Made by a program: the position numbers and the translations under genes. 64,000 bases of DNA, taken from the NCBI GenBank assembly GCA_945956915.1, contig CAMFJH010000002.1, forward strand, positions 33,842-97,841, given 5' to 3'. Below, piece after piece: positions 4,492-38,671 of the stretch. This DNA comes from an uncultured Francisellaceae bacterium (GTDB taxonomy: Bacteria > Pseudomonadota > Gammaproteobacteria > UBA6186 > Azoamicaceae). Position 1 is the first letter of the stretch; the number at the start of each line of letters is the position of its first letter. A model generated the notes under the pieces. The model did not search any database. It had not been told where the DNA came from and was given only the letters and a program-made list of their open reading frames with translations.

Positions 4492-5444
4492 ATACTATTT
4501 TAGTGTTAGCAGAACATGATAATCTCAACTTAAAAAGCGCTACAGCTAATACGATTCGTGCAGCGTTGGCATTTGAAGGCGAAATACAGGTGCTGGTTGC
4601 TGGGTTTAATTGCCAGGCGATTGCTGAAAAAGTAGCCAGTTTAGAAGGCGTTAAAAAAGTGCTGTTGGCAGATGCAGCTTGTTATGAATATGGCTTGGCC
4701 GAAAATATTTCAGCCTTAATGCATCGTGTAATAACCGGAACAGAAAAGACGTACAATTATGTATTAGCACCCGCAACCACCTACGGAAAAAATATATTAC
4801 CCAGAGTCGCTGCAAAATCAGGGGTGTCACAAATTTCTGACGTGATAAAAATTATTAATAAAAATACCTTTGTAAGACCCATTTATGCCGGCAATGCTGT
4901 ACTAACTTTAGAATCTATCGATCACTTGAAAGTGATGACTGTTAGAACCACGGCTTTTGAAGCCGTATCCAGCAATCAAGCACCCGTAGATATTATTCGA
5001 ATTGCAGAGCAAAGCGATAAAAAATTATCTCAATTTATTAGCCAGGAAGCTCATCAGACTAAAAGACCGGAATTAACCTCTGCGCGTATTGTAATAGCAG
5101 GGGGCAGGGGATTACAAAGTGCCGAAAACTTTAAAATGTTAGAAGCGTTAGCCGATAAATTGAATGCTGCAGTAGGCGCATCACGAGCTGCTGTGGATTC
5201 AGGTTTTGTGCCTAATGATTATCAAGTGGGACAAACGGGAAAAATGGTGGCGCCTGAATTATACATTGCTGTGGGCATATCCGGGGCTATACAGCATTTA
5301 GCAGGCATGAAAGACAGCAAGATCATTGTCGCTATCAACAAAGATCCTGCCGCCCCAATTTTTCAGGTAGCCGATTATGGCATTATTGGCGATTTATTCG
5401 AAATTTTGCCAGAATTTAGCCATGCTTTAGATGCCTTAAACTGA
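4488..5444 (+). CDS. etfA: Electron transfer flavoprotein alpha subunit
   Basis: C-terminal FAD-binding region [46 protein letters not shown]. Confidence 0.9.
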
Positions 5445-7721
5445 GTTTCCAGATTTAGGACTTTTAGGGCTGTTTTCAACCTGCTTATCCTGAATGTGTA
5501 TATTAAGAGCAGTGCTGCTATCTCCAAGGTTTTGAGATGCTGCAGAAAACATCATTGCTAATGCCGGTGTTGCAGCACCTGCTGCTTCCAAACTCTCTTT
5601 TTTATTGGAGAGTAATTTTTGTAACTCGTAATCAAAGCGCAAGCCAATACCTATTTTTCCTTTTTGATTTGCCAAAGCTTCTTCTAAAATAAGTACAGTC
5701 ATCAGCGGATGATTAATCAATTTTACTATGGCATCTTTGTCTCCTAGCCCTGAATAAGTGACTACAATGTTTTTGAAATCCTCTTTAGCGGTTGCTTCTT
5801 GTGAGCTAATATTGAGGTTGTCTAATAATGCCTTTTCTAATGCTAATAATTCAGATGGAAAAGAAGAAACTGTGTATGTGTTTTTGTACGCTACAACTTC
5901 TTTCAGCCCAAAAAGTGGAGATAAAGGTACTTTATCTGTATTGCCAGGATTTTGAGAAAGTATTTCCAATGCACCTTTAAAATCTTGCGAGGAAAGCGCT
6001 AATCTGAATTTTAGTACTAAAGGATGCTCTCGTTTTAATGTTTCAGAAAGGATCCAGTCGATACCTACAAATAACGATCCTGTGACAGCCTGAGCTGCCG
6101 TAGCCAGTGTTCGTTGCCAAGATAAAGAGATTTGTTCAGGGGTTTTGCCCAAATCATTTAAAATATATTTTTTTAAGTCAACATATGTTTGAGCTGTAGT
6201 GCCGAATGACAGAGAGGCGATATATTCACTTAATATGCTGTCTAGTTCGGATAGCAAGGCCTCTCCTATTGTTTGAATCCATATAGGATCATTTTCGTAA
6301 GTCAATATTTCAATCCAGTGATTATAGATTTTTTGTGCAGTTCGTTTTCCGCTTGTAGTGTTTCTTAAATGTTGTACTTTCTCGGAAACTACCAGTATTT
6401 TTTGAGCAAGTTTCGGTACTTCTGAAGGTACATCCGGCGATTGTATGCCTTGAATGAGTTTTTGCATTTTTTCAATATAGTTTTTACTAGCTTCTCGACC
6501 ACTTAGCATTAATGCTACTTTTTCCAATCCTGACAAACCAAAATTTAAGGTTGATATATTCATATCTTGCCCTTGAATAGTTCTGTCTGGGTAAAATTGG
6601 CCTACGCCTTTATCAGAGTTTATCATCAGCGCTTTTACCAAATCTGTAAATGAAGTAGAGGGTTGTGCACTTGCTTTTCTTTCAAAAAGTAAAGTTTCAC
6701 ATTCATCTTTACTATCGACTTTAAAACCTAGGGTGTAGGGGTTAATTTTTTGAGGCTTATTATTACCAATCGCAACTCTGACAAGTTGGGGTTCATTTTC
6801 GCCAAAAAACTGCCCTTGAATTCCATACTTATCCCTACGATCAAAAATATCCATGGGGTAGTTCATACGCATACCGCCATCTGCGAATTGAACGATACCT
6901 CTTTGTTCGCCCATGTCTATGGGGTGTGGTTTGAAAGCAAAAGGAAAGCTCATGGTGGCCCTAAAAGCATCGACTATTTTAACATTCGGTGTGTCGATAT
7001 GTGAAAATATTTGTGTTTCTTTTTTTACAATATCTGTTCCGGTTAGAAATAAATCTTTAAGTGAATTATCATTGTTTGAACGCTTTTCCTTTACAAGCGT
7101 ATGAAGATCGGCAAAAGTCATATCGGGATTGAATCCTTTGTCAATGAGAAAATTTTTTGCTAAGTTAATGCATTCAACACCCTGCCATACATGACTTTCT
7201 TTATAGAAACTGAATGCATCCCCCAAGCCCAATGCTGAGCGCGAACGGATAGTCGCACTCACCACTGCACTGGCAGCAAGACTGGCTGGAATAGAGAGCC
7301 CACCCGATACAACAGCAGCTCCTGCAACAGCAGCACCACTGGTTAATTTACCTACGGTGTTTAAAGTGCTGCTTATTGTAGAACTGTCTTCAAGTAATTT
7401 AAAATCGGTATTCATGATCAATCGAATCACTTCATCAGAGGTGTACCCCAATGCCACCATAAATGCCGTCATACCACCGGCAGAGCTACCCGCAACATTA
7501 TGAACCTCTGATAGAAAATTTTGGGATTCTAAGGTTTTGAGTGCACCTGCAAATAATGCACCTTTTGCACCGCCTCCTTCAAAAACCAAATTAATAGGTT
7601 TAGGATTTTTTAAAACCGCTTCTCTTAAACTATCTTCGTTTGTAAAGCCTTGGTTTTGAAATTCCGAGTTCTCTTTTTGCTCTTGAAGCAGTTTGTTAAC
7701 TTCATTGGTTGGCTTGCTCAC
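5436..7721 (-). CDS. Patatin-like phospholipase with a long C-terminal extension (effector-like)
   Basis: Oxyanion motif GGGAKG (aa 49-54), nucleophile motif G-S-S-A-G (aa 78-82), and a DGG motif (FADGGMRM). About 450 further residues carry no motif I recognise. Confidence 0.8.
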   Translation of the reverse strand: MSKPTNEVNKLLQEQKENSEFQNQGFTNEDSLREAVLKNPKPINLVFEGGGAKGALFAGALKTLESQNFLSEVHNVAGSSAGGMTAFMVALGYTSDEVIRLIMNTDFKLLEDSSTISSTLNTVGKLTSGAAVAGAAVVSGGLSIPASLAASAVVSATIRSRSALGLGDAFSFYKESHVWQGVECINLAKNFLIDKGFNPDMTFADLHTLVKEKRSNNDNSLKDLFLTGTDIVKKETQIFSHIDTPNVKIVDAFRATMSFPFAFKPHPIDMGEQRGIVQFADGGMRMNYPMDIFDRRDKYGIQGQFFGENEPQLVRVAIGNNKPQKINPYTLGFKVDSKDECETLLFERKASAQPSTSFTDLVKALMINSDKGVGQFYPDRTIQGQDMNISTLNFGLSGLEKVALMLSGREASKNYIEKMQKLIQGIQSPDVPSEVPKLAQKILVVSEKVQHLRNTTSGKRTAQKIYNHWIEILTYENDPIWIQTIGEALLSELDSILSEYIASLSFGTTAQTYVDLKKYILNDLGKTPEQISLSWQRTLATAAQAVTGSLFVGIDWILSETLKREHPLVLKFRLALSSQDFKGALEILSQNPGNTDKVPLSPLFGLKEVVAYKNTYTVSSFPSELLALEKALLDNLNISSQEATAKEDFKNIVVTYSGLGDKDAIVKLINHPLMTVLILEEALANQKGKIGIGLRFDYELQKLLSNKKESLEAAGAATPALAMMFSAASQNLGDSSTALNIHIQDKQVENSPKSPKSGNSV

Positions 7722-9769: not shown

Positions 9770-10229
9770 TAATACAGATTTAAACAGTCAATCAGTACCA
9801 TTTACGCCTTTTACAGGGGGACGTAAAAAAGCACGCCGTTATGCTATGCAAGCTTTGTACAGTTGGTATATTTCAGAGAACAGTTTAAAGGACATCGAAA
9901 CGCATATTTTCTTGGAACATGGTACTGAACATTTTGATAGAGAGTACTTTAAACAGTTATTACATGAAATTCCTGCACGTCTATCCAATATTTCGGATAC
10001 TTTAAGCCCCCATTTAGCCAGACCATTGGAAGAATTGGATCCTATCGAATTGGCTGTTTTAAGAGTTGCTGTTTTTGAATTAATTTACAGACCTGATATT
10101 CCGTACAAAGTAGTCATTAACGAAGCCTTAGAATTGGTTAAAACCTTTGGTGCTACTGAAAGTCACAAATTTGTTAATGGCGTTTTAGATAAAGTGGCAA
10201 AAGCATGTAGGCCTATTGAAATGCGTTAA
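9756..10229 (+). CDS. nusB: Transcription antitermination factor NusB
   Basis: [11 protein letters not shown]...[27 protein letters not shown] is a typical NusB signature. Confidence 0.9.
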
Positions 10230-10233
10230 TATT

Positions 10234-10728
10234 ATGCAGTTTGATCCTTTTGAACGAGAATATATTCTGGGTGCATTATTATCTTATGCAGAGATGGGGA
10301 ATCCTATTAGTGCAGATATTCATGAGATTTTAACCCAAAAATTAGAAATGCATCCCTTGCAAGCTGTTTATCCCAATCGTCCGCCTATTACCATGTGGAT
10401 CCACACCTCGATATTTTTAGAGGGTATTGGCATGGTATTTAACACACCAGAAACAGTTGCGATTGCATTAAATCCAGCATTTGAAGGTGAGTATTACTGT
10501 ACCTTGAACCCGCTTGATAAAGAACCCTTAAAAAAATGTACGGATGATTATTTGCGCACTGTAGGATCCCCTACTTTTCCTCTAGCACAGGCAATTAAAA
10601 AACGTCAGCAAGAATTAAAAGAAAGACAAGAGGCTCAAAAATCTGAATATAATATTTTTTTTAAAGTTAAAAAACTCTGTTCATTAGCTGAGAAACTAAA
10701 AAAACACAGATTATCCCAATGCGTTTAA
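10234..10728 (+). CDS. Hypothetical protein (no recognisable domain)
   Basis: ORF 10216..10728 (TTG). The first ATG is at 10234. K/E-rich C-terminal tail. Confidence 0.5.
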   Translation: MQFDPFEREYILGALLSYAEMGNPISADIHEILTQKLEMHPLQAVYPNRPPITMWIHTSIFLEGIGMVFNTPETVAIALNPAFEGEYYCTLNPLDKEPLKKCTDDYLRTVGSPTFPLAQAIKKRQQELKERQEAQKSEYNIFFKVKKLCSLAEKLKKHRLSQCV

Positions 10729-10816
10729 AATATTTATTATTTTAGAATTATATTATAAAATACACAATTTAGTAAAAAAAGGATTTCAGTTTGAGAATAA
10801 AATCCTTGCAGAGGAA

Positions 10817-13800
10817 ATGTTTGGTAAATTTGAAATAGAGATCAATAATTTTTTAAAGCTAAGAGAATATCCATCTGCTTTTCATGAAATAATTATAGTG
10901 CTATTTTCTAATTATTTATATGATCGTTTTGTTGCCACACAAATCATAAGCTTTAAAGAAAAAGCTTTTTATTGGTTTAATATACTTTGCACACAAATGG
11001 ATTTAAGGGGTTTGTTTAAACGTTCTTGGATAACAGACCTGCGATTAGCACTCTTTAATTATTACTATGCTTATATTTGTGGTAAAACACAAAAAACTTG
11101 TCCTGAACTTAATATAGCACACAAAGTACATCATTTGTTAGAAATTGAAACCATTGCTCCAGGGATTTTTATTTGGTTAGAGAATATAGAGCTTTTGCCT
11201 AAAAGTGTACCCATATTCTTTGATACTATTTCACTTAAAAAAGATCCTGCAACGCAAAATGCTATAGAATCGGAAACAGCTAGGGCATTATATATGACTA
11301 AACTTCATCAATATATCAGAGCAAAGCATCCTATGGATGCTGGCATTGAAAAAATATTGGTTGAAATTTTTAAAATGTCTAAGATGAAAATAGCCTGTGA
11401 AGATGAATCTTTAGAAATCCCTTTATGGATTAACACTGATATCATTAAAAACAACAGATTATGTATTGATTCAGAAGATAGGCTGGCTAAAATTCTAATA
11501 CCAAGCTATGAAGGCGAAACCTATTTTAGTTTAGAAGAATTGCAAGGGCAGAACGCTCTTTGTACAGCTCGAGCTGTAATGGTATCCCAATGTGAGAATT
11601 ACTTTTTAAGCCAGATTATACAAAATTCTGATGGAGAGAATCTGTTGGAAGAAAAGCTGAGTGTTGAAAATGGAATGAAACTCTCATTCAGCTTGTGTGC
11701 AATAAAAATTGATATGAGACAAATAGAGTTAAAGCGACAAGAACAATTGCTAAAAAGAAAAAAGACTTTAATATCTAATGAACAGGTGGTGATTTATTTA
11801 TTAATTTTAGGTGAGCATGTCTTAGAAAAAATAGAAATAACACAAGGTGTTATCATTTTTTTGATGGAAATTTATTATGAAATATGCACTTATTTTGAGA
11901 AGCTAACTGACCATTCTTCTTTAAAGTTTCGGTGCATGCAAGGGTTGAAAAAATTATTAACGGTATCTGATAAATTTATAACACACCAAGAACTCGTTTA
12001 CATGCTTTTGTGTAGAGTTCTACAAACAGAAAAATACATGAAGGTTCTAAATAATGAAAATCAATTTGATACGGTAGAAAAGTTTTTTGCAAAAGCCATG
12101 ATGCATTATTCCAAGCATAACAATATATTGCCATTTCCTTGGGCTAATATCATTCGTAAATCCGTCTTAGAATCTATGTTAATCAATGATTTCCATGCTG
12201 TGAAATGCACTATGCGAGATATGGCATCGCATTTTCAAGGTTTAGGTAATCAAGCCTGTGAGGAATGGATAAGTAGAAAAGAACATGCTATTTTGCCTAT
12301 CGAACAGCGTTTGAAAGTGGAATTGGCAATACGATATTATACCATTATAGTGTGGATGGCAAATGCACACTTGTTTGTAGAAACACCCAAAAGAGCGGAC
12401 ATTAAGGAATATGCAAAAATTAAAAGAGATCGCTTACAAGAGGACTTAACTAAATCCCACAATGAAGAGAGGCTGCTCCTGCTTACTCCAGGTCTTGCTT
12501 ATATCCAAGCGGGGAATACACCTACAGTTTTGATGACAGCCTTTCTAAATGAACATCCAGACTTTTTAAATCAGGCAGCCTTGCTTTTAAAGAAAAGATA
12601 CAAAAACTCCATTAAAGCAAGTTTAACGGATGTAGAAATTAGATTTTTAGTTGAAATGTATCAGGAGATAAAAGATAAACCGTATGAGCCGCTTTTTAAA
12701 TCAATTTTTCAATTAGATGTTTTGTGGCAAGTTTATAATTGGTTTAGTAAAGCCAAAGCACCGATTTTAATAAATCAAAATCGTATATTTGACTTGTCCA
12801 TGGAAGTGGAAAGTTTTATTGCACAGCAAGAAAAAACCATTTTTTATGAAATAGCCAATATTTTATTATTTAATATACGTCGATATGCTGTAAAACATAA
12901 TTTTTTAACGATATATACACCTCAAAGTACAGGATTTTGTTTTACAACGGCAATCAGTTCTTTGACTACAGTCTTTTTTAAATCATCATGGGCTAACACG
13001 CTTAGAAAAGAGTCATTGTTGGTTTATATGTCAGAATTTTCAAATTTTTCAGTGCCTAAAACCTGCAATACTTTAAAGAAAATAGTTGGTTACTTGACCG
13101 CCACAGAAGTTGTGCAGGAGCATAAAGATATTCTTCAATGGATGCTTAAAACGAATATGGTGACAGAAAAACAAATTGAAGAGAATCGACAAAAACCTAA
13201 AAGCCGAGAGGTGCATTGTATAGAAGAGGCGGTTTTAAGCTTAAATGATATCGTAAAAGATGTGAAACATTCTCCATTGAAGGCAATGGCGCAGGAAATG
13301 CAGAAAGTCATTTTATTGGCTCCTAAAAATAAAACAAAAACTAATATTAAAAAGCAAAATGAAAAAATTAAAAAACCTCCTCAAGCAATTACAATGTCAG
13401 AAACCAGCCTAGAAGAACGAGCTAAATTACATGAGCAAGAGCGTAAAAATAAAATTGAAGAAGAACAAGAAATGGCAGCTCGTAGACAAGCCATTGTATT
13501 GCAAAATGAACGAAACCGAATAGAACAAGAAGCTTTAGATCGCCAAAAAGAATCTGAAGCCTGGCGTGTTAAGCGTGAAGAGCAAGCAAGATTAAGGGCT
13601 GAAAAAGAATCTTTAGCTAGCAGTAAATCTACACAAAATACAAAAATAATAAGAGATAAATTGCGTTTGAAAAGTGAAAAAAAAGAAGAGGAAAATAACA
13701 GGTTAGCAGCAGAAAAAGAAGCCGAATTAAAAGCAAAGCATGAGAGAAAATTAGAAGAGCAAAAAATAGAACGTGAGAAAGAGAGTCTAAGAACACTGCA

Positions 13801-15064
13801 GCAATATAATTTGATGATGCAACAAGCAAAAGAGAGTTCAATTGCTGAGCGATCACTGCGAGCTTTGCGTAATTTTGAGATAGAAGAGTTTACAGCGCAG
13901 GAATTGCCCACAAAAAATAAAAAATTATTAACAGATCTGATAAAAGTTGCCAATGCTCATCATATCCCAGAAATTCAGATATACGGAAGTTATACGGTTT
14001 TTTTAGCCAGTCTTCGCTTAAATTTTCCTATTAAAGATATCAGACGACCAGGCGATTTAGATTTGCGCATTGTGATAGATACACAAGATTTTAAAGAAAG
14101 TTTAAGTTTTATCTCTGATTTACAGAATGCAGGGTATATTTTAAAAGGCTATAATGAAAGTGCAGATCTAACAAAAGGCTTGGCGGATTATGTTTTAGAA
14201 AAAAAAACGAGTGGGTTTCTTAATTTGAGTTTGGCAGCCGATAAAGAGGATGCAGAAACTTATGAAATAGAATTGGCTATTTTGTTTAAGGATCATTATA
14301 TACCCAATCATAATCCTTTTTACTTATTAAGTCATTATATAAAAATTTCAAATAATGAATGTGCTTTTGATGGATCGGATTTAAAAGCAAGAGCCGAATT
14401 GGCTCAAGATGTTATGAATAAAAACTTTAGGATTATTCCTGCTGAACTTTTTAATCCTCATCAATATAATGTGTTTAACTTCTTTCCAAGGCTTTTTAGA
14501 AATATAAAAACATGTAAAGGCTATAAAATAAAAACCAAAGTCATACAGGGATTATTTACAAACTTAGAAACCATCTATAGATTTTTTAGCATACGATTTT
14601 CACTTAAGAAATACAGAGAATGTTATTTGGAGTTAGTAGGTTTAATTAATCAAAATCAATTTAAATTGGCTCTAAGCGCACCTATTATAAAAGGATTTTT
14701 GATGGCTTTGCTTGAAGTGATTAATACAGAAGCATTAGTAAATTTAAACAGAAAAGATTTTTTTTCAAAAGACATAGACTTTGATTCGAATAAAATAACA
14801 CAAAAGCTACAGGAAAAATTCGCGACTCTTATTTGTGTTGTACACGGAGATCAAGATGTTAATAAAACTGCTTTTAAAAAATTTTACAATGGTTTAATGG
14901 ATACATTAGTTGAACATGGTGACAACGAAAAAATAAAGGTATTTTTAAGAAAGAGCCAAGAAAGGAAAGGCAGTGTGCTATACAATAGTTTTAAAAAGCC
15001 TGAAAATATAAAACATCTGCCTGAAGAGCTAAGGCCAACAACTAAAAAATTATCATATAGATAA
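10817..15064 (+). CDS. Giant 1415-aa effector-like protein: helical N-terminal region, K/E/R-rich coiled coil, C-terminal nucleotidyltransferase-like motif
   Basis: Uninterrupted 4.2 kb ORF. Charged low-complexity block at ~13380-13860. G1057-S...D1080-L-D1082 at 13985-14062. Confidence 0.75.
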   Translation: MFGKFEIEINNFLKLREYPSAFHEIIIVLFSNYLYDRFVATQIISFKEKAFYWFNILCTQMDLRGLFKRSWITDLRLALFNYYYAYICGKTQKTCPELNIAHKVHHLLEIETIAPGIFIWLENIELLPKSVPIFFDTISLKKDPATQNAIESETARALYMTKLHQYIRAKHPMDAGIEKILVEIFKMSKMKIACEDESLEIPLWINTDIIKNNRLCIDSEDRLAKILIPSYEGETYFSLEELQGQNALCTARAVMVSQCENYFLSQIIQNSDGENLLEEKLSVENGMKLSFSLCAIKIDMRQIELKRQEQLLKRKKTLISNEQVVIYLLILGEHVLEKIEITQGVIIFLMEIYYEICTYFEKLTDHSSLKFRCMQGLKKLLTVSDKFITHQELVYMLLCRVLQTEKYMKVLNNENQFDTVEKFFAKAMMHYSKHNNILPFPWANIIRKSVLESMLINDFHAVKCTMRDMASHFQGLGNQACEEWISRKEHAILPIEQRLKVELAIRYYTIIVWMANAHLFVETPKRADIKEYAKIKRDRLQEDLTKSHNEERLLLLTPGLAYIQAGNTPTVLMTAFLNEHPDFLNQAALLLKKRYKNSIKASLTDVEIRFLVEMYQEIKDKPYEPLFKSIFQLDVLWQVYNWFSKAKAPILINQNRIFDLSMEVESFIAQQEKTIFYEIANILLFNIRRYAVKHNFLTIYTPQSTGFCFTTAISSLTTVFFKSSWANTLRKESLLVYMSEFSNFSVPKTCNTLKKIVGYLTATEVVQEHKDILQWMLKTNMVTEKQIEENRQKPKSREVHCIEEAVLSLNDIVKDVKHSPLKAMAQEMQKVILLAPKNKTKTNIKKQNEKIKKPPQAITMSETSLEERAKLHEQERKNKIEEEQEMAARRQAIVLQNERNRIEQEALDRQKESEAWRVKREEQARLRAEKESLASSKSTQNTKIIRDKLRLKSEKKEEENNRLAAEKEAELKAKHERKLEEQKIEREKESLRTLQQYNLMMQQAKESSIAERSLRALRNFEIEEFTAQELPTKNKKLLTDLIKVANAHHIPEIQIYGSYTVFLASLRLNFPIKDIRRPGDLDLRIVIDTQDFKESLSFISDLQNAGYILKGYNESADLTKGLADYVLEKKTSGFLNLSLAADKEDAETYEIELAILFKDHYIPNHNPFYLLSHYIKISNNECAFDGSDLKARAELAQDVMNKNFRIIPAELFNPHQYNVFNFFPRLFRNIKTCKGYKIKTKVIQGLFTNLETIYRFFSIRFSLKKYRECYLELVGLINQNQFKLALSAPIIKGFLMALLEVINTEALVNLNRKDFFSKDIDFDSNKITQKLQEKFATLICVVHGDQDVNKTAFKKFYNGLMDTLVEHGDNEKIKVFLRKSQERKGSVLYNSFKKPENIKHLPEELRPTTKKLSYR

Positions 15065-15300
15065 AAATGCAAGGGGAGTTCTAGATGAATGCAAATTATC
15101 GTAGTTTTTCGGCGTATATATTATTAAGGTGAGAAGAATATAATAGAAGAGTATTTGAAAAATTTTATACGAGTTTGACGCTCAAGCAGATCTTAACAAT
15201 CGCCCCAAGACACTGAACTTACTTGAGGTTTAAGTGTAAGTACACACCAATAAGGACATAGGTCAAGCATGGGTGTAATAGAATCAAGGTCGATAATACT

Positions 15301-15329
15301 TTGACATTTTGCATTTTATATGCAATAAT
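15301..15329 (+). promoter_or_regulatory. Candidate sigma70 promoter for the ATPase/RloB cassette
   Basis: TTGACA (15301-15306), a 17-nt spacer, then AATAAT (15324-15329), 29 nt upstream of the ATG at 15358. Confidence 0.4.
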
Positions 15330-15357
15330 TAACATTATTTTCTATAGGTGATCTAAA

Positions 15358-16623
15358 ATGCTTGTTGAGTTTAGAGTAAAGAACTTTCGTTCCATTCGTG
15401 CTGAACAGCGATTTAGCCTTGTAGCAGACAAAGATTCAACTTACTCAGAATCACATATTTCTGAAAGTGAGAATAAAGCTACACCCTCTTTACTCAAATC
15501 AGCAGTGATTTATGGACCTAATGCCAGTGGTAAGTCTAATCTCATCAATGCCTTGGGTTTTATGCGTGAAGTTGTTGCTACCTCAGCCACTCAATTGCGT
15601 GAGGGGCAACAATTTCCTTGTCCTCCTTTTAGGCTTGATGCAAGCTCTAAAGAACAACCTAGTGAATTTGAATTAACTTTTATTGATCAAGGTATACGTT
15701 ACCAATATGGATTCTCTTTAATGCCTGAACGAATTATGGAAGAATGGCTGTTGGTCTATAAAACCTCTAAACCACAAATGTGGTTTCATCGTCGTTTTGA
15801 TCGAAAAAACGAAAAGGATGAATATAGTTTTGGTTCACACTTAACAGGACATAAGGCTTTATGGCAGGAATCTACTCGAGCAAATGCTTTGTTTCTTTCT
15901 AAAGCAGTGGATCTTAATAGTGAACGTTTAAGACCGATTTTTTTATGGATTGTTGAAAAATTGGTCATTTTTAGTGCTGGAAAAAAACCAACCTATCGCT
16001 CAACGATTGCATATGCTCAGACTCAAGAAGGGAAGGCAGCTCTTTTAAGATTTCTTAATGCGGCTGATCTTAGTATAGCTAATCTTTTATTTGAAAATAG
16101 AAAAATTATGCCCGGTCTAACCTTTTTTCGGTCTAATCCTTCAGGAAAGCCCTCTATACTGCATCATGCATTTGAATCTGAAGAAACAATACCTTTGTTT
16201 TTACATGAAGCAGAAGATGGAGCAGCTACTTTCGAAATACAAGATGAATCCACTGGAACACAGCGAATTTTTGCATTTGTGGGACCAGTGCTTTCTGTTC
16301 TTAAAGATGGATTAGTACTTATCGTGGACGAGTTAGATATCAGTTTACATACGCTGATGGTAGAATTTTTAATTACTCAGTTCCATTCAACCCAAAATAA
16401 TCCTAAAGGTGCGCAATTGGTTTTCACAACACATGATACTTCGTTATTAGATAATGAAATTTTTCGTCGAGATCAAATTTGGTTTGTCGAAAAAGATGCA
16501 GCTCACGCCACTACTCTTTATCCTTTAACAGATTTCAGCCCTCGCAAAAAAGAAGCTCTTGGGCGTGGTTACTTAAGGGGTCGTTATGGAGCTTTACCTT
16601 TGTTTACTGATTTTAAGTTGTAA
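15358..16623 (+). CDS. ABC/SMC-type AAA ATPase (AAA_15/AAA_21-like), ATPase partner of the RloB-like protein
   Basis: N-terminal FRVKNFRSI. Walker A GPNASGKSN (15514-15540). Walker B LVLIVDELD. D-loop/H-loop region VFTTHD. Confidence 0.8.
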   Translation: MLVEFRVKNFRSIRAEQRFSLVADKDSTYSESHISESENKATPSLLKSAVIYGPNASGKSNLINALGFMREVVATSATQLREGQQFPCPPFRLDASSKEQPSEFELTFIDQGIRYQYGFSLMPERIMEEWLLVYKTSKPQMWFHRRFDRKNEKDEYSFGSHLTGHKALWQESTRANALFLSKAVDLNSERLRPIFLWIVEKLVIFSAGKKPTYRSTIAYAQTQEGKAALLRFLNAADLSIANLLFENRKIMPGLTFFRSNPSGKPSILHHAFESEETIPLFLHEAEDGAATFEIQDESTGTQRIFAFVGPVLSVLKDGLVLIVDELDISLHTLMVEFLITQFHSTQNNPKGAQLVFTTHDTSLLDNEIFRRDQIWFVEKDAAHATTLYPLTDFSPRKKEALGRGYLRGRYGALPLFTDFKL

Positions 16624-16632
16624 TTAAGTAAT

Positions 16633-17283
16633 ATGGGTAGAGATAGCCAACCTCGCATACGTCAAAAAGAAAAATTGGAACGTAAAGCGGCCACACGTCC
16701 TACTTACAATCGGATACTAATCGTTTGTGAGGGTACAAAAACTGAACCAGGATATTTTTCTGAAATTAGAAAATATTACAGGCTAAGTGGCACTCATATT
16801 AGGATTATGCCTGCCGATGGTACGACACCCATGCAGGTTGTACATTATGCAGAAAAGGAATTAAAAAAAACTTACAAATGGGAACAAGTATTCTGCGTAT
16901 TTGATCGTGATGATCATCATAATTTCAATAATGCATTATACAAGGCGGAAGCGCTTAACAAGAAATTTAAAAATGAAGAAGATGATGAGATTGAATTTAA
17001 AGCTATTGTTTCAAATCCTTGTTTTGAGTTGTGGTTATTGTTACATTTCATCCCTGTCACTAAAGAAACTCATCGCAATCAAGTGTCACATTTGTTACGT
17101 CATACTACCCGCTTACCAAAATATGAAAAAGCTAAGGATGGATTTTTTGCGAAGACACGTGAAAAACTGCATATTGCATTTGATAATGCAAAGCGATTAA
17201 GTAAGGATCCTAATCAGAACCCCCATACTTCTATAGGCCAAATAGTAGAATCATTAATTAATTTGAGAGAACATAAGGATTGA
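16633..17283 (+). CDS. RloB-like (Toprim-type) protein
   Basis: ILIVCEGTKTEPGYF, VFCVFDRDDH and SNPCFELWLLLHF match my memory of the RloB family (E...DxD Toprim core). Starts 9 nt after the ATPase stop. Confidence 0.7.
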   Translation: MGRDSQPRIRQKEKLERKAATRPTYNRILIVCEGTKTEPGYFSEIRKYYRLSGTHIRIMPADGTTPMQVVHYAEKELKKTYKWEQVFCVFDRDDHHNFNNALYKAEALNKKFKNEEDDEIEFKAIVSNPCFELWLLLHFIPVTKETHRNQVSHLLRHTTRLPKYEKAKDGFFAKTREKLHIAFDNAKRLSKDPNQNPHTSIGQIVESLINLREHKD

Positions 17284-17423
17284 TTATTTACACCTGGTCA
17301 TTCATGAAACTAATTTTTTAATGATTTAAAATAAATCTAATCTATAAAAATATCATCTTTCTCAACATTTACGGAACCTAATGAGCCAAGTATACTAATG
17401 CTTTAATTAAAGCCGAGGTTGAT

Positions 17424-18533
17424 ATGGGCAAAAGGACGGTATTGTATCAAGAGCATTTAAAGGCACATGCCTTAATGGTTGAATTTGGGGGATGGGATAT
17501 GCCCTTGCATTACGGTTCACAAATTGCTGAGCATAATCAAGTTAGGCAATCTGCTGGTATGTTCGATGTCTCTCATATGGGTGTTATCGATATCCTAGGT
17601 CCACAAACTCAAGAGTTCTTGCGTTATTTATTGGCCAATAATATTGATAAATTAACAGAACCTGGAAAAGCGATTTACAGCTGCATGTTAAACGACACTG
17701 GTGGCGTGATAGATGATTTAATTGCCTATTTTATATCCCCTGAACATTACCGTTTAGTCGTGAATGCGGCTACGTATGTAAAAGATGTGGACTGGATCCG
17801 CACCCAAACAAAAGCATTCGAGGTTTCGCTTCATGAGATGCAAAACTATGCCATGATTGCAGTACAGGGACCAGAAGCTATCTCGAAAATGGATATGGCC
17901 TTTCCAACATTCAAAAATGCGATTCAAGTATTAAAAGCTTTTCACTTTGTAGAACAAGCCGGATGGTTTATTGCACGCACAGGATATACCGGTGAAGAAG
18001 GTGTTGAGATGATTTTGCCTGCAAAAGATGCCGTTGCTGCTTGGCAGGCATTGGTCGCAGCAGATGTTATGCCCTGTGGATTAGGAGCTCGGGATACACT
18101 GCGTTTAGAAGCAGGATTTAATTTATATGGCCAAGATATGGATGAATCAGTTACACCGCTTGAATCGAATCTAAGCTGGACCCTGGCTTTTAATTCAACA
18201 CAGAGAAATTTTATTGGACGTAGCGCTTTAGAAGCACAAAAAAAACAAGGTATGCCTTCACAATTGATAGGTATCGTTTTAAAGCAAAAAGGTGTGTTAA
18301 GGCATGATCAAAAAATATTTGCCTATACCACGGATATCAATCATAGGAAAGAAGTTGGTTTTGTGACTAGCGGAAGCTTTTCACCTACATTAAAATACGC
18401 TATTGGTTTTGCACGTATTAAAACACCGGCTGTTGAATCAGAAGAACAAATGCGTTATTGTGTGGAAATTCGAGACAAAGCTTTAGAGGTCCATCTGGTG
18501 CAACCCCCATTTTTTAGGAGACAGAACTCATGA
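17424..18533 (+). CDS. gcvT: Glycine cleavage system aminomethyltransferase T
   Basis: EFGGWDMPLHYGSQIAEH...MFDVSHMG...RTGYTGEEGVE. Confidence 0.95.
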   Translation: MGKRTVLYQEHLKAHALMVEFGGWDMPLHYGSQIAEHNQVRQSAGMFDVSHMGVIDILGPQTQEFLRYLLANNIDKLTEPGKAIYSCMLNDTGGVIDDLIAYFISPEHYRLVVNAATYVKDVDWIRTQTKAFEVSLHEMQNYAMIAVQGPEAISKMDMAFPTFKNAIQVLKAFHFVEQAGWFIARTGYTGEEGVEMILPAKDAVAAWQALVAADVMPCGLGARDTLRLEAGFNLYGQDMDESVTPLESNLSWTLAFNSTQRNFIGRSALEAQKKQGMPSQLIGIVLKQKGVLRHDQKIFAYTTDINHRKEVGFVTSGSFSPTLKYAIGFARIKTPAVESEEQMRYCVEIRDKALEVHLVQPPFFRRQNS

Positions 18534-33395: not shown

Positions 33396-35001
33396 TTCAA
33401 CTTTGAAGTAAATTTAGCCAACAGGATGACTTTATTCTCCCGATGTTGCACACTAAAATGATTAAATTTTTTCAAGCAGCCTTCTTTTTGATGGCTTTTG
33501 GGTCTTTTATAATGATGGGGAATCGAGTTCTTCTCTTTTGTTTTGCCCCTTTAAGCCGACCTGGTGGTTTAACTCGGGGTTTTGGTGCATAGGCAGGTGT
33601 TCCAATTTCGGCAGTTATTTGAGTAAAAGACTTTTGAACTTGCCTTGCAGATTTTACTCTCTCATTATTTTTCATTTCGGGCAAATATTTTTCCCATGGG
33701 GTTGGTAAATTGCTTGCCAATTTGCGTGCCATATAAAGTTGTGCATAAGCCAAAGATGAGAGCTTCCAACAGGATTCTTCATGAAGTGTATCGGGTGTTT
33801 GAAATTTATCCATGAGCAATCTCGTTTTACCAAATTTAAAAAAATGCTCTATATCGTAACGTCGCTTATACGATTGCCAAATCTGCATTAGGTTTAACGA
33901 TTGTCTTTGTTTTCCAGAAACCATAAGCCACATAGCTCGTTTATAAACTGGGTTATTGTTTTCATCAGTGATGGTGATTCTAATCAGCCTAAATGGATAT
34001 TTATTTAAGTGTATGTTATTTTTCTGCCGCATTAATAGTTCATCCCAACATTGAATATGTGCTGTAAATTGTTTGGCTTTTCGAGTTTTAAAAATTGCAG
34101 ATAGGGATTCTGCCGGGGTGCACCAGGTGGCATTATCTTTTAAATTAAATTCTTTTCCATACCATAATTCATGGCCTCGTTCACGTCTACCCGTTATTTT
34201 TAGTTTTTTTGGACTGGCTTTATGATTGAAAATACGATTACTTTTCAAGCGTGCAATTAAAATTAAGTTTGTATGATTTTGCATACCATCAATAAATTTT
34301 GGACTGCTATAGGCGGTATCTCCTAAAATGACTGTTAATTCAGAACCAAAAAATGGCATCGCTGTGTTTACTTGTTGTATACCAACAGCAATCCCATTAG
34401 TATGGGTTGCCACACGTTGAGTAGATAACGGTAAGATCCAAGGCACTTGTTCTTCATTTAAATTTTGCTCTGGCAAAAAACCCATAATACTGTATTGGTG
34501 ACCAACCGTAATGGGTTTATTCCCAGGAATGACATTCGGAGCATGAATGATACCTTTATCTGCAAGTGTTTTAGAATATTTGCGAGGTGCTGCAGTACAA
34601 TCTAATACCATTAAACGAAAAGGTTGTCTTTCTGTGATAGAAGAGCAATGCTTAATTAAACAATGTTCTAAGCGCATGCTTTGTTGCGGATCTTTGGCAA
34701 AATGAGTGATAGCATCTCGGATACTTCCATATCTACGCCTGAAAATAGGATTTAAAGATAATTGTACAACTGAAGTAGCATGCGTATTACCAGATAAGAC
34801 ATCTACAAGATCCATAGTGGAATCTGCTCGAAATGAAAAACAATTAAAAATTTGGTCGCGAAATTGTTTAAATTTGTTTACAATGGCTACTTGCATAAGA
34901 GGTGTCCTTCACTTTGGTAAGAGACTGTGACATTACACCTTCTTATGCAATTAATCAAATTATTATATCAGTTGAATTGCTAAATTCACTTCAAAGTTGA
35001 A
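33396..35001 (-). mobile_element. IS4-family insertion sequence (1606 bp) with 23-bp terminal inverted repeats
   Basis: IR TTCAACTTTGAAGT(A/G)AATTTAGC at 33396-33418 and, reverse-complemented, at 34979-35001. Encodes a 474-aa DDE transposase. Confidence 0.85.
33472..34896 (-). CDS. IS4-family DDE transposase
   Basis: VLDCTA (D1), ILGDTAYSS (D2), and YKRRYDIEHFFKFGK, which is the Y-2-R-3-E-6-K (YREK) signature. Confidence 0.85.
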   Translation of the reverse strand: MQVAIVNKFKQFRDQIFNCFSFRADSTMDLVDVLSGNTHATSVVQLSLNPIFRRRYGSIRDAITHFAKDPQQSMRLEHCLIKHCSSITERQPFRLMVLDCTAAPRKYSKTLADKGIIHAPNVIPGNKPITVGHQYSIMGFLPEQNLNEEQVPWILPLSTQRVATHTNGIAVGIQQVNTAMPFFGSELTVILGDTAYSSPKFIDGMQNHTNLILIARLKSNRIFNHKASPKKLKITGRRERGHELWYGKEFNLKDNATWCTPAESLSAIFKTRKAKQFTAHIQCWDELLMRQKNNIHLNKYPFRLIRITITDENNNPVYKRAMWLMVSGKQRQSLNLMQIWQSYKRRYDIEHFFKFGKTRLLMDKFQTPDTLHEESCWKLSSLAYAQLYMARKLASNLPTPWEKYLPEMKNNERVKSARQVQKSFTQITAEIGTPAYAPKPRVKPPGRLKGAKQKRRTRFPIIIKDPKAIKKKAA

Positions 35002-35210
35002 ACGAACAGCTTTTGTATTGAAGGATGCACCTAGCTCTGCTGCTGTTTGCGGTGATTTTTTTGCTAGCTCATCCTGCAATTGTGCTAAATAATTTTTAAA
35101 ATGGTCGACTGTCTCTTCCAATTCTCCAAGCTTTTGTTCAGTCAGATATATTTTTGTAAGTTCTGGATCTGTTCCCTTATCTACGCCGATACATTCATGA
35201 TCTCTTTTGG
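35002..35210 (-). pseudogene. Internal remnant of the same disrupted gene, bounded by the IS4 element and by an IS6 end
   Basis: Minus-strand open frame KRDHECIGVDKGTDPELTKIYLTEQKLGELEETVDHFKNYLAQLQDELAKKSPQTAAELGASFNTKAVR, with no start codon before the IS6 inverted repeat. Confidence 0.35.
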
Positions 35211-35448
35211 TTGTGTTGCAAGAATCCTGTGCTTATGATACTATGCACGTATATTTATGGCGGTGGGTCAAGCAGAATGAGCAATCAAATCAGTTTTAAG
35301 TGGAGGCAGTTTCCAACGGATTTTATTTTATTAATGGTTCGTTGGTATTTATCCTACTCTTTAAGCTACCGTAATATTGAAGAGATGATCTTGGAACTGG
35401 TGATTCATGTTATTCATACAACCATTCATAGCTGGGTATTTTATTGCG
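35209..35448 (+). mobile_element. IS6-family left-end fragment (about 240 bp, degenerate)
   Basis: GGTTGTGTTGCAAGAATCC inverted repeat plus the first ~60 transposase codons (MSNQISFKWRQFPTD...). Similarity to the full copies is lost near 35448. Confidence 0.75.
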
Positions 35449-35457
35449 ACAGAACCT

Positions 35458-35745
35458 TCAAACACGCATTTCATGGCCTGCTGCATACTTGTGTAAGATA
35501 CTCGCGATAAGGGTTTGATAGGGCAACCCTTCATGAGCAGCTTTTTGTTTAATCTGCTGTAAATCAGTCGCTGATATTCTAATATTGATACGCGCTCCTT
35601 TAGAAAAGTAGTTAGTAGCAGCTTTTTTTGATTTAACCCTCTCTCTATTTAAATTTTTAACACTTTTCCATTCTCCACGGTCGAAAGAAACAGATAAGGA
35701 TTTCTCATTTTGATCTAAATTAAAAACTGGTTTTTTAATCATCAT
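35458..35745 (-). CDS. brnA: BrnA-type antitoxin (RHH/CopG-like)
   Basis: RINIRISATDLQQIKQKAAHEGLPYQTLIASILHKYAAG. Overlaps the toxin gene by 11 nt. Confidence 0.7.
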   Translation of the reverse strand: MMIKKPVFNLDQNEKSLSVSFDRGEWKSVKNLNRERVKSKKAATNYFSKGARINIRISATDLQQIKQKAAHEGLPYQTLIASILHKYAAGHEMRV

Positions 35746-36034
35746 AAATTACCTCATTAGTAGAACTTGAATATTGCTTAGTTGCTTTTCTACTCGGAAA
35801 AGCGGTTTTAAGAAAAATTTCACTCTCACTCTCTACAAAAGGAACTAAATACACGTAGCCGTAAAGCTCTAAAACATACATTTTTTGATGTGAATATTTT
35901 TGTGGATTAGGGTGCATAATCACATCTAAAGGCCCCATATTTTCTAAAACAGCTATAATTTCCTCAAAACTAACCCCCCTTAATTCAATAAGTTTTTTGT
36001 TTTTCTCTGGATCAAAGTTGTAAATAAGTGACAT
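35735..36034 (-). CDS. brnT: BrnT-type toxin (DUF497)
   Basis: FDPEKNKKLIELRGVSFEEIIAVLEN...LKTAFPSRKATKQY resembles the DUF497 pattern F.WD..KN..N...HGVSFEEA...ARKA. Confidence 0.65.
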   Translation of the reverse strand: MSLIYNFDPEKNKKLIELRGVSFEEIIAVLENMGPLDVIMHPNPQKYSHQKMYVLELYGYVYLVPFVESESEIFLKTAFPSRKATKQYSSSTNEVIYDD

Positions 36035-36748
36035 GTAAATAATATTAGTACATTGTACGCCTTATGTCAACACACCAGGGTCAATTAGGTTGTGTTGCAA
36101 GAATCCTGCGCTTATGATACTACGCACGTATATTTATGGTGATGAGTCAAGCAGAATGAGCAATCAAATCAGTTTTAAGTGGAGGCAGTTTCCAACGGAT
36201 CTTATTTTATTAATGGTTCGTTGGTATTTATCCTATTCTTTAAGTTATCGTAATATTGAAGAGATGATGTTGGAACGGGGGATTCATGTTGATCACACAA
36301 CCATTAATCGCTGGGTAGTTTATTACGCACCCTTATTAGAAGCTGCATTTAGAAAAAAATTTAAGAGTAATATTGGAAAAAGTTGGCGCATGGACGAAAC
36401 GTACATTAAAATAAAAGGTGTCTGGCATTATTTATATCGCGCAGTTGATAAGAATGGCGATACAGTTGAATTTATGCTATCAGAAAAGCGCGATAAACCT
36501 GCTGCAGAAGCTTTTTTTATAAAAGCAATCGGTTCAAATGATTTGTCAGAAAAAGTAACGATTGATAAAAGCGGTTCAAATTATGCTGGATTAAAATCAA
36601 TCAACGCTACGCTCGCACTCATATTATTACTTGGATTTTCTATTATGGAAATAAAAATACAGCAAATAAAATATTTAAACAATATTGTTGAACAAGATCA
36701 CAGGGGAATTAAAAGAATCACAAGTCCGATGATGGGTTTTAAAAATTT

Positions 36749-37800
36749 GGCTCTTCATGGGTTTCGGGGAGTTTTCATATTAATTAAAATCTGTTACTAT
36801 TCTGGAAATAGTTCAATAACATATGCAAGGTCTATAGTATGTTTACAACACTTGTCAATATAAAAAACCTAGTTGATGATCAAAAATGTTACGACGCTGT
36901 AAGATCATTACGTTGGGCAGATAAATGCTTATGTCCGCATTGTGATTCAACTGATATTATTAAACGTGGTAAAGATGAAATAACACCTGCTAAGCAACGA
37001 TATATCTGTAAATCTTGTGAAAAACACTTTGATGATTTAACGGGCACTCTATTTTCAGGACATCATCAACCACTTAAGGTGTGGGTTTTATGCCTTTATT
37101 TTATGGGGTTAAATCTATCAAATCTTCAAATTTCAAAAGAACTTGATTTAAATAAAGATGATGTTCAGAAAATGACAAGTCAATTGAGAGATGGAATTTA
37201 TATAAGAGCTCCTGAAGTTAAATTATCGGGCGAAGTAGAATTTGATGAAGTTTATGTGGTTGCTGGTCATAAAGGAAATTCCAAGGTTATAAAAAAAAGG
37301 ACGTCTTGGTAGACGAAATCGTTTCAAAGGTGCTAGAGGGCGTGGGACTTTAGAAAAAGAAAAACCGCCTATTTTTGGAATGATTCAAAGAGGTGGCCAG
37401 GTTGTAATCAGAATGTTATCAGATGTAAAACAAGCTACAATAGAACTCATAATTAAAAATGTTGTTAAGATGGGCAGCAGAATTTTTACTGATGAGTATG
37501 ACATTTATGCTCGATTAACCCTATGGGGTTATGAACACAAAACTGTTTGTCATGGCTCGTATGAATATGCCAGAGACGAAGATGGTGATGGATTTCACGA
37601 AGTGCATGTAAATAGCATAGAAGGTTTTTGGTCTTTATTGCGATCATGGTTGAGACCACATCGAGGGATCTCGCAGGAAAAACTACCTATTTATTTGGGG
37701 TTCTTCGAGTTCATTCATAATGTTAAAAAACGTGGGAAAGCCGTGCTTTTGTCACTGTTGGAGAATTTATTGTGTATCTCCCCAAAACACATATAGAGCC
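36749..37800 (+). mobile_element. IS1595-family (ISXO2-like) insertion sequence, 1052 bp, with a perfect 8-bp target-site duplication
   Basis: Imperfect IRs GGCTCTTCATGGGTTTCGGGGAG and GGCTCTATATGTGTTTTGGGGAG (reverse complement). AAAAATTT at 36741-36748 and at 37801-37808. Confidence 0.85.
36839..37796 (+). pseudogene. IS1595-family transposase, in two frames separated at an A8 run
   Basis: Zinc ribbon CPHCDS...CKSCEKHF. DDE motifs EFDEVYV, IFTDEYDIY and NSIEGFWSLLRSW. ORF 36839..37312 and ORF 37380..37796 are in frames differing by +1. The A8 run is at 37291-37298. Confidence 0.75.
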
Positions 37801-37963
37801 AAAAATTTTTATTCTGCGGAATCTACATTAGCAGGCATCGAACTGTGGCGCATGCTTAAAAAAGGTCAACATATTGATGCGGCAAACTCTTCAATCTTTG
37901 AGCAGTTTTATGCGCTCGCTGCTTAACCTCGTCTAGGAAAAATACGTTTACAATTTGTGAGTG

Positions 37964-38290
37964 TCAGATAATTTTTTTGCAACACAACCTATGAATCTGA
38001 ATAGGCTCTATGGGATCGAGTCTCTCCCTGATTTGAGTGTCACAAGGTATTTGCTGGATACCATATAAAGTCCTTAGGTTATGTTTAAGCGCTTTATCTT
38101 CCATTCGGCCTTGGTCAAACTGAAGTAAAGAAGGGTATTTAAGACTAAAAATCGCTAGACCCGACATAAGACAATCGGCCAATGAAAAATTGCACACACG
38201 TTTTCTAGCCGGCTCAGTTATTTTTTGAAATTTTCGATACGCCAATTTATACAAAAATTCTGCTGAGAAAGCCTTTCTTAACTTAGCCAT
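37964..38290 (-). pseudogene. Truncated ORF running into the IS6 right inverted repeat; possibly the N-terminal part of another transposase (tentative)
   Basis: The 108-aa ORF has its last ~9 codons inside the IS6 IRR (37964-37989), so the native 3' part is missing. The FSLADCLMSGLAIFSLKYPSLLQFD motif looks transposase-like to me, but this is unverified. Confidence 0.35.
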
Positions 38291-38671
38291 TTTGTAATCC
38301 TCCCATAACAGTTAATTACTCAGCTAAATAATGAAAGTCTGCGAAAAATATTTTTTTCACTGGCTTACAACCTTGATTATACCTGGGTTAAATCGATGGC
38401 GGGAATCCCTGACTATTTTTTTATTTCAATATGAAGCACACGGAAAGGTGTGCGAAATAGTCTGAGTAGTTACACAAAAAGTATATATCTATTTTAATAT
38501 TCCAACTGCCGACTCTTAGGATGAAACATAACATAACGGGTTTTATGGCTAGTGACCCCAATTCTCCTGCTTTATTGAGAACTTACGGTTAGTACTAGCT
38601 CCATAATAGAGGAATGTGTGCTAGGATGTGGTGATAGGTAAAAGCAAAGAAATCACAAGGAGGAATAATAT

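Follow-up and report, generated by a model that had tools for sequence, protein, structure and literature searches.

The AbiL system of Lactococcus lactis is a plasmid-borne abortive-infection system, which has been grouped with PARIS as a combination of an ATP-binding cassette (ABC) ATPase and a TOPRIM protein (PMC11464382, PMC13064643, PMC10440598). On plasmid pND861 it consists of a gene for an AAA_21 ATPase of ~410-420 aa (AbiLi), followed co-directionally and at close spacing by a gene for an RloB protein of ~190-220 aa (AbiLii). According to the review in which the original study is cited, an abortive-infection or anti-phage phenotype that depends on both genes is known for this lactococcal prototype only (Deng et al. 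1999, in PMC13064643). The RloA/RloB proteins of Campylobacter jejuni type I restriction-modification (RM) loci comprise the same Pfam family RloB with an AAA ATPase partner, while PARIS (AriA/AriB) is built from a split ABC ATPase of the AAA_15/21 type and a separate Toprim-type nuclease. For such pairs PARIS provides the likely model, in which the nuclease stays sequestered by the ATPase until a trigger sets it free (PMC11464382). In the OLD family (P2 Old, class 1) and in GajA of Gabija (class 2) an ABC ATPase is likewise combined with a Toprim nuclease. Here we analyze a gene pair of this general layout in a 64,000-nucleotide (nt) stretch of contig CAMFJH010000002.1 from an uncultured Francisellaceae bacterium, hereafter called the window, and conclude that it is probably a functional AbiL-type two-gene module with its own promoter.

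The pair consists of two open reading frames (ORFs) on the forward strand, ORF1 (15358-16623, 421 aa) and ORF2 (16633-17283, 216 aa), as given by ORF translation of the window. Both are co-directional, and only 9 nt lie between the stop codon of ORF1 (16621-16623) and the ATG of ORF2 at 16633. A non-coding 5' flank of 293 nt (15065-15357) separates the pair from an ORF of 1415 aa (10817-15064), and a non-coding 3' flank of 140 nt (17284-17423) from gcvT (17424-18533), which is followed by gcvH, gcvPA, and gcvPB in this order. An initial annotation of this DNA had described the two ORFs, their spacing and motifs and a promoter-like site, and all of these were found again when the sequence was re-read. 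It had also interpreted the pair as a split ATPase plus Toprim-like defense module resembling AbiL or PARIS, an interpretation that the results reported below support.

ORF1 encodes an AbiLi-type ABC/SMC-like ATPase. As the initial annotation had predicted, it matches Pfam AAA_21 (PF13304; E 7.3e-42, 144.9 bits, cut-off 27) and AAA_15 as well. The PADLOC profile AbiLi (PDLC02335) aligns to residues 1-420 with an E value of 4.8e-98 (326 bits), far above all other PADLOC defense-ATPase profiles. A further match to the PADLOC profile 'AriA' (PDLC02980; E 2.9e-40, residues 49-365, profile positions 2-304 of 304) covers the same residues and profile positions as Pfam AAA_21 and thus seems to be generic rather than specific for AriA. 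The translated protein carries FRVKNFRSI at residues 5-13, the Walker A motif GPNASGKSN at residues 53-61 (nt 15514-15540, with G53-S60 at 15514-15537), a signature-like E297-S-x-G-T-Q302, LVLIVDELD at residues 319-327 with the Walker B residue D324 and the catalytic E325, and FTTHD at residues 356-360 with H359 as H-loop. In an alignment of 65 homologs the residues G53/K59, S298-G300-T301-Q302, D324-E325, and H359 are invariant, and all are present in ORF1. The AlphaFold2 model (predicted local distance difference test, pLDDT, 88.3) resembles Rad50/SMC heads and PtuA of Septu/retron systems in a Foldseek search of the PDB (E 1e-11 to 1e-9). The C-terminal tail (residues 395-421, nt 16540-16620) was modeled with low confidence and is nevertheless conserved: R396, E399, Y405, G408, R409, A412, and P414 are invariant among the 65 homologs, and even a Lactococcus homolog still shows G-x-x-G-A-x-P.

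ORF2 encodes an AbiLii/RloB-family protein of 25 kDa, a putative Toprim-like metal-dependent nuclease. The match to Pfam RloB (PF13707), again as predicted beforehand, spans profile positions 1-195 of 195 (E 6.6e-40, 137.8 bits, cut-off 31.5), and the PADLOC profile AbiLii (PDLC02337) covers residues 12-214 (E 7.9e-30, 102.7 bits). NCBIfam holds no specific model for ORF1 or ORF2, and searches of the PDB sequences with both proteins gave nothing relevant. In the translation we read the motifs ILIVCEGTKTEPGYF, VFCVFDRDDH, and SNPCFELWLLLHF, with the key residues E33 after strand 1, D91-x-D93(-x-H95) after strand 3, and S127/P129/F131/E132/W134/H138 after strand 4. Among 113 representatives of clusters at 50 % identity, D91, E132, W134, and H138 are invariant, while E33, G34, E38, D93, H95, S127, P129, and F131 are conserved in at least 90 %; motif conservation also holds in an alignment of 64 homologs. 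A basic N-terminal helix (residues 1-27, nt 16633-16713) is conserved as well, yet of low model confidence. The best match of the AlphaFold2 model (pLDDT 90.1) in BFVD was a phage RloB-like protein (Foldseek E 2e-8, template modeling (TM) score 0.68), and no other kind of match appeared there.

Whether RloB is a true Toprim protein deserves separate consideration. Aravind, Leipe and Koonin are said to have defined Toprim, in 1998, by a glutamate after strand 1 and a DxD after strand 3. The model of ORF2 has the order beta-alpha-beta-alpha-beta-alpha-beta, with strands at residues 28-32, 56-60, 85-91, and 121-128 alternating with helices; E33 comes immediately after strand 1, and strand 3 terminates in D91-R-D93. 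Motif and topology are therefore consistent with Toprim, although homology is not proven by this agreement. Profile comparisons gave faint signals. With hhalign, a shallow RloB alignment found nothing in P2 Old, and the single match of a diverse RloB profile to P2 Old was the Toprim glutamate segment (LLVEGKTE…; E 0.025, probability 1.9 %). When RloB residues 25-62 were aligned to the glutamate segment of an OLD core made from three sequences (P2 Old, Thermus OLD, and GajA), the E value was 6e-4 at a probability of 28 % over 36 columns. A tblastn search of plasmids with the P2 Old Toprim region, aimed at a diverse OLD profile, returned nothing. Weak matches among the 113 RloB members comprised three to OLD-like_TOPRIM (PF20469) and three to Toprim (PF01751), both at E ~0.05, and 19 to DUF4276. 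The literature favors a Toprim fold for RloB (PMC10440598, PMC11464382, PMC13064643). Taken with motif, topology, and the weak profile signals, this hints at such a fold.

Besides its two genes, the cassette carries regulatory signals. A sigma-70-type promoter-like site, TTGACA-17-AATAAT with a TG-extended -10 element, lies at 15301-15329 on the forward strand (11 of 12 positions match) and is the sole strong promoter-like site that our scan found in the region, although the number of such sites is not significant against shuffled sequence (6 versus 10.2 +/- 2.8 expected). Its cores TTGAC and TGCAAT do not vary among the cassettes of the window and of our loci L089 (~1120-1150), L091 (~5838-5868), and L084 (~195-225), which show ATPase identities of 62-79 %. 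Furthermore, nucleotide homology to the cassettes of L089 and L090 begins at window position ~15295 (blastn). Given this start of homology and the invariant cores, the unit is predicted to bring its own promoter. Between the -35 and -10 elements we observed a palindrome, TTGCAT-N5-ATGCAA, that is partly kept in the other cassettes and could be an operator. A Shine-Dalgarno-like AGGTGAT precedes the ORF1 start at 15344-15350 on the same strand (TATAGGTGATCTAAAATG). Since the terminator scan found no intrinsic terminator on the forward strand 3' of ORF2, transcripts that start at the cassette promoter may read through into gcv.

If compared to the described systems, the pair resembles AbiL of pND861 most closely. 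It shares the sizes, order, and spacing of the two genes, and it shows what PADLOC uses to define AbiL: matches to both profiles, adjacency, the same strand, and the order ATPase to RloB. A Lactococcus prophage pair annotated as 'abortive phage resistance protein' aligns over its full length with the window pair at 28-29 % identity, and its AbiL profile matches (4.4e-76 / 4.7e-18) are weaker than those of the window pair (4.8e-98 / 7.9e-30). Differences exist as well: AbiL is plasmid-borne, whereas the pair studied here is chromosomal, sits between housekeeping operons, and belongs to a Gram-negative low-GC gammaproteobacterium, and the basic helix of its RloB protein does not align to the lactococcal or E. 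coli-plasmid homologs. From RloA/RloB of C. jejuni it differs in being free-standing, as the scanned ORFs of the window (44 of the 52 non-overlapping ones with 120 aa or more) yielded no hsd gene.

With PARIS, which the initial annotation had likewise named, the pair shares its architecture. AriB is a DUF4435 protein of ~35 kDa, whereas ORF2 is an RloB protein of 25 kDa, and neither ORF2 nor its homologs match DUF4435 (PF14491) or an AriB profile. Without DUF4435, PARIS identity was rejected. We also know of no Ocr-type trigger or tRNA target for AbiL, unlike for PARIS. With OLD proteins, RloB shows a weak alignment at the EG..E motif that follows beta1; however, in OLD and GajA both domains are fused and GajA needs the helicase GajB, whereas the present locus consists of two separate genes and has no helicase. 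An OLD system of class 1 or 2 was consequently discarded as well, the genes being unfused and their neighbors being the 1415-aa gene and gcvT rather than GajB. PtuA of Septu/retron systems shares the ATPase fold with ORF1 (Foldseek E ~1e-10 to 1e-9), yet its partner nuclease is the HNH protein PtuB, while here the partner is RloB. Judged from its sequence, the pair is thus of the AbiL/RloAB kind by every criterion that could be applied.

At its present site the pair is accessory. Scans of GTDB species-representative genomes and JGI metagenomes via gcvT yielded no close genome (GcvT identity <= 55 %), and the AbiL pair was present in 0 of ~160 gcvT-anchored loci from these more distant genomes. 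Closer syntenic contigs were reached through GlyA homologs. Named GlyA matches at 73-76 % identity stem from several different gammaproteobacterial orders. One relative (L176/L177), with 83 % identity to the window in GlyA, 68 % in GcvT, and 82 % in GcvPB, retains etfQO-etfBA-glyA-nrdR-nusB and gcvT-H-PA-PB. Its nusB-gcvT interval is occupied by one gene of 695 aa, unrelated and in opposite orientation, and contains neither the AbiL pair nor the 1415-aa gene nor orf170. In the window, orf170 (170 aa) and the 1415-aa ORF occupy positions 10216-15064 of this interval. In a second relative (L174, GlyA 88 %), nusB is followed, before the contig ends, by homologs of orf170 and of the 1415-aa gene, the latter matched in its N-terminus. 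Thus, the nusB-gcvT interval is variable and the pair is no conserved housekeeping partner of gcv, which agrees with the earlier view that it should not be universally conserved at the junction with gcvT. With one informative relative, gain and loss are indistinguishable. Flanking direct or inverted repeats were limited to short, chance-level matches, and no tRNA or integrase marks an insertion at the pair. In fact, neither a tRNA nor an Rfam family was detected anywhere in the window; hence gcvT is not preceded by a glycine riboswitch, and a tRNA that could serve as integration site is missing.

Both genes appear to be maintained. ORF1 and ORF2 are full length, and all ABC-ATPase motifs and the E/DxD/E residues of RloB are intact. 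Compared with the nearest relative (L089), the proportion of nonsynonymous differences (pN) is 0.12 for the ATPase and 0.29 for RloB, while the synonymous proportion (pS) is saturated at 0.73-0.78. As pN is far below the saturated pS, both genes are, to judge from this comparison, under purifying selection. The nonsynonymous distance (dN) to L089 is 0.37 for RloB versus 0.13 for the ATPase, and protein identity 53 % versus 79 %; RloB evolves ~2.5 times faster than its partner.

Homologs of the pair are abundant. At E <= 1e-3, RloB has matches in 5273 clusters formed at 50 % identity; of 8000 candidates scored for the ATPase, more than 7900 clusters (90 % identity) reached E <= 1e-10. A look-up of the exact RloB sequence led to a single ENA contig of 5.4 kb, which is identical to the window. 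Every homologous locus inspected comprises a ~415-425-aa AAA_21 gene followed by RloB, 9-10 nt apart or overlapping, and the settings of these pairs are those of an accessory, mobile unit. The nearest relatives (ATPase identity 79 % in L089 and 74 % in L091) lie on contigs with a GC content of 0.375-0.396, as compared to 0.375 for the window, but in unrelated neighborhoods: L089 near HigB-like and HipA genes and ruvCAB, L091 near Phd/YefM and umuDC-like genes. Other pairs are found beside IS21, an integrase, and HicAB (L084), near HigB (L085), at a prophage end after the lysin gene in Lactococcus (L179), and as the only cargo of 3.9-kb mobilizable ColE1-type E. coli plasmids (L180).

Such company raises the question of whether the pair is a selfish toxin-antitoxin (TA) module, with RloB as toxin and the ATPase as neutralizer, which would persist by post-segregational killing or stabilize the nusB-gcvT region and bring no meaningful anti-phage benefit. 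Close homologs amid HigB, HipA, Phd/YefM, and HicAB genes and pairs as sole cargo on small plasmids would fit this idea, as does the presence of AAA-ATPase plus OLD_TOPRIM/RloB pairs in the NetFlax TA network and the behavior of related AAA/TOPRIM pairs as toxin and antitoxin in neutralization assays (PMC10440598). However, TA and defense functions are compatible, PARIS being both (PMC13064643), and lactococcal AbiL as well as the frequent siting within type I RM loci favor defense, so that we regard a purely selfish module as unlikely. That siting leads to another scenario. A type I RM locus houses the homologous pair in L082 and L086-L088, with hsdR on one side and hsdS/hsdM on the other, and RloB is named after such loci (PMC10440598, PMC13064643); RloA/RloB, the 'R-linked ORFs', might therefore be an orphaned RM accessory here, whose partner was lost and which is inactive or relies on a distant hsd locus. 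This is very unlikely, since the scanned ORFs of the window include no hsd gene, many homologs are free-standing with their own conserved promoter, and both genes are intact and apparently under purifying selection.

As an AbiL-type module, the pair might work as follows. ORF1, the ABC/Rad50-like AbiLi protein, would most likely oligomerize, bind ORF2, and hold it inactive, and so serve as sensor and antitoxin. ORF2, the AbiLii/RloB protein, would be the effector and toxin, a small Toprim-like nuclease dependent on divalent metal. Upon phage infection or entry of a foreign element, a trigger would alter the state of the ATPase, whereupon the nuclease would be released or activated and cut nucleic acid. 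Its substrate could be RNA, for example tRNA as in the case of PARIS, or else DNA, the substrate in OLD and Gabija. Such cleavage would halt phage production at the expense of the infected cell. One might speculate that the ATPase tail 395-421 and the N-terminal helix of RloB are candidate docking elements between both proteins.

Several observations weigh against this interpretation. First, the model of ORF2 had no match in the PDB at E <= 1e-3 (Foldseek); the C-terminal region of OLD (6nk8) appeared at rank 18 with a non-significant E value of 0.09 and TM scores of 0.33-0.36, and hmmsearch of the PDB sequences with RloB profiles found no Toprim protein. Of the earlier assignment of ORF2 as RloB/Toprim, the RloB part and the agreement in motif and topology consequently stand, while the fold lacks significant structural matches. 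Second, the mechanism of AbiL is unresolved, and a 2026 review of lactococcal Abi systems leaves open whether AbiL/RloAB works like PARIS (PMC13064643). The anti-phage role of the pair would be one assigned by analogy. Third, the pair is solitary, as neither an hsd/RM gene nor a defense island was detected among the scanned ORFs of the 64-kb window. Fourth, its composition is inconspicuous: GC contents of 0.373 and 0.355 (z -0.3 and -0.9) and also GC3 lie within the range of the window. The initial annotation had regarded the pair as acquired as a two-gene unit; its homologs do travel as a pair in RM, TA/insertion sequence (IS), plasmid, and prophage settings, but a composition typical of the window does not demonstrate recent acquisition. 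Finally, in L091 (7160-7486) and L092 (8320-8646) the RloB ortholog ends just past DRDDH at 108 aa, next to an intact ATPase (74 %). The short RloB of L091 might be either a natural effector-less variant or a pseudogene. Such cassettes can thus decay in these lineages, although this is not the case in the window.

This last point, together with IS debris in the window, could suggest that the pair is a decaying relic without current function in a host-restricted genome. With both ORFs full length, every motif present, promoter and Shine-Dalgarno sequence intact, and pN far below pS, we consider this highly improbable. A housekeeping DNA repair or recombination factor, composed of a Rad50/RecF-like ATPase and a Toprim nuclease, is scarcely tenable: the best PDB matches of the ATPase model are Rad50/SMC heads and a weak RecF match exists, but the latter scores 20 bits against a cut-off of 172, a long coiled coil and an Mre11-like partner are missing, and the pair is absent from the syntenic relative and the distant gcvT loci and otherwise patchy and linked to mobile genetic elements.

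Returning to the AbiL-type module, one could go a step further and place the pair and its nearest relatives in a lineage-adapted AbiL subfamily of host-restricted, amoeba-associated gammaproteobacteria. This idea is based on the 74-79 % ATPase identity, the conserved promoter, and low-GC contigs with Sel1 and Rickettsia-17-kDa-type genes, and we hold it to be quite unlikely. If it were true, the RloB helix and the ATPase tail would be the parts specific to this subfamily and could form a docking and release switch unlike that of PARIS. The response could then be directed at dangers of intracellular life rather than at classical phages, for example podophages of the Legionella type, conjugative elements, or elements of co-resident symbionts.

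The remainder of the window offers additional observations. The 1415-aa ORF has the lowest GC content of the window (0.319) and no match in Pfam, PADLOC, or the PDB sequences; to call it 'effector-like' is a guess. At 630-2006 on the forward strand, a protein of 458 aa combines a Schlafen AlbA_2 domain with HATPase_c_4. It matches PADLOC profiles of pAgo-associated proteins (Aga/pAgo) partially (E 1e-16 to 1e-18), and may be a solitary defense-related or regulatory gene. A transposase cluster at 33472-41805 contains a DDE_5 transposase (474 aa), two pieces of IS240/IS6 type, and a split IS1595 with Zn-ribbon and DDE as separate ORFs, and flanks a 767-aa protein with weak GTPase and His-rich matches only. 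This cluster suggests IS decay of the kind seen in host-restricted genomes. On the reverse strand, a 761-aa patatin-like phospholipase (5436-7721) adjoins glyA. It is kept at the same place in L174 (4635-6899, 57 % identity), with a Sel1-repeat gene beyond. Genes for patatin-like phospholipases and Sel1-repeat proteins are frequent in amoeba-associated bacteria. The other genes of the window are of housekeeping type (etf, lgt, thyA, folA, lipopolysaccharide core genes, and H+-PPase).

Taken together, the pair represents a widespread and catalogued kind of predicted anti-phage system, a routine find that standard defense finders would call. The initial annotation had considered it worth attention on the grounds that defense repertoires of Legionellales-type organisms are poorly described. 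This reason is weak, as surveys of Legionellales repertoires with PADLOC and DefenseFinder already exist and the isolation of a Legionella phage has been reported (PMC12407071; bioRxiv 10.64898/2026.04.11.717937). As a compact 2-kb unit with clear motifs and its own conserved promoter, the cassette is a usable candidate for AbiL/RloAB biochemistry, even though hundreds of other RloB-family members offer the same. Its value for the biology of the organism is modest: within this lineage the nusB-gcvT interval is a variable site with lineage-specific genes, and the pair adds one more intact AbiL-type module for an under-sampled, probably host-associated lineage of gammaproteobacteria.

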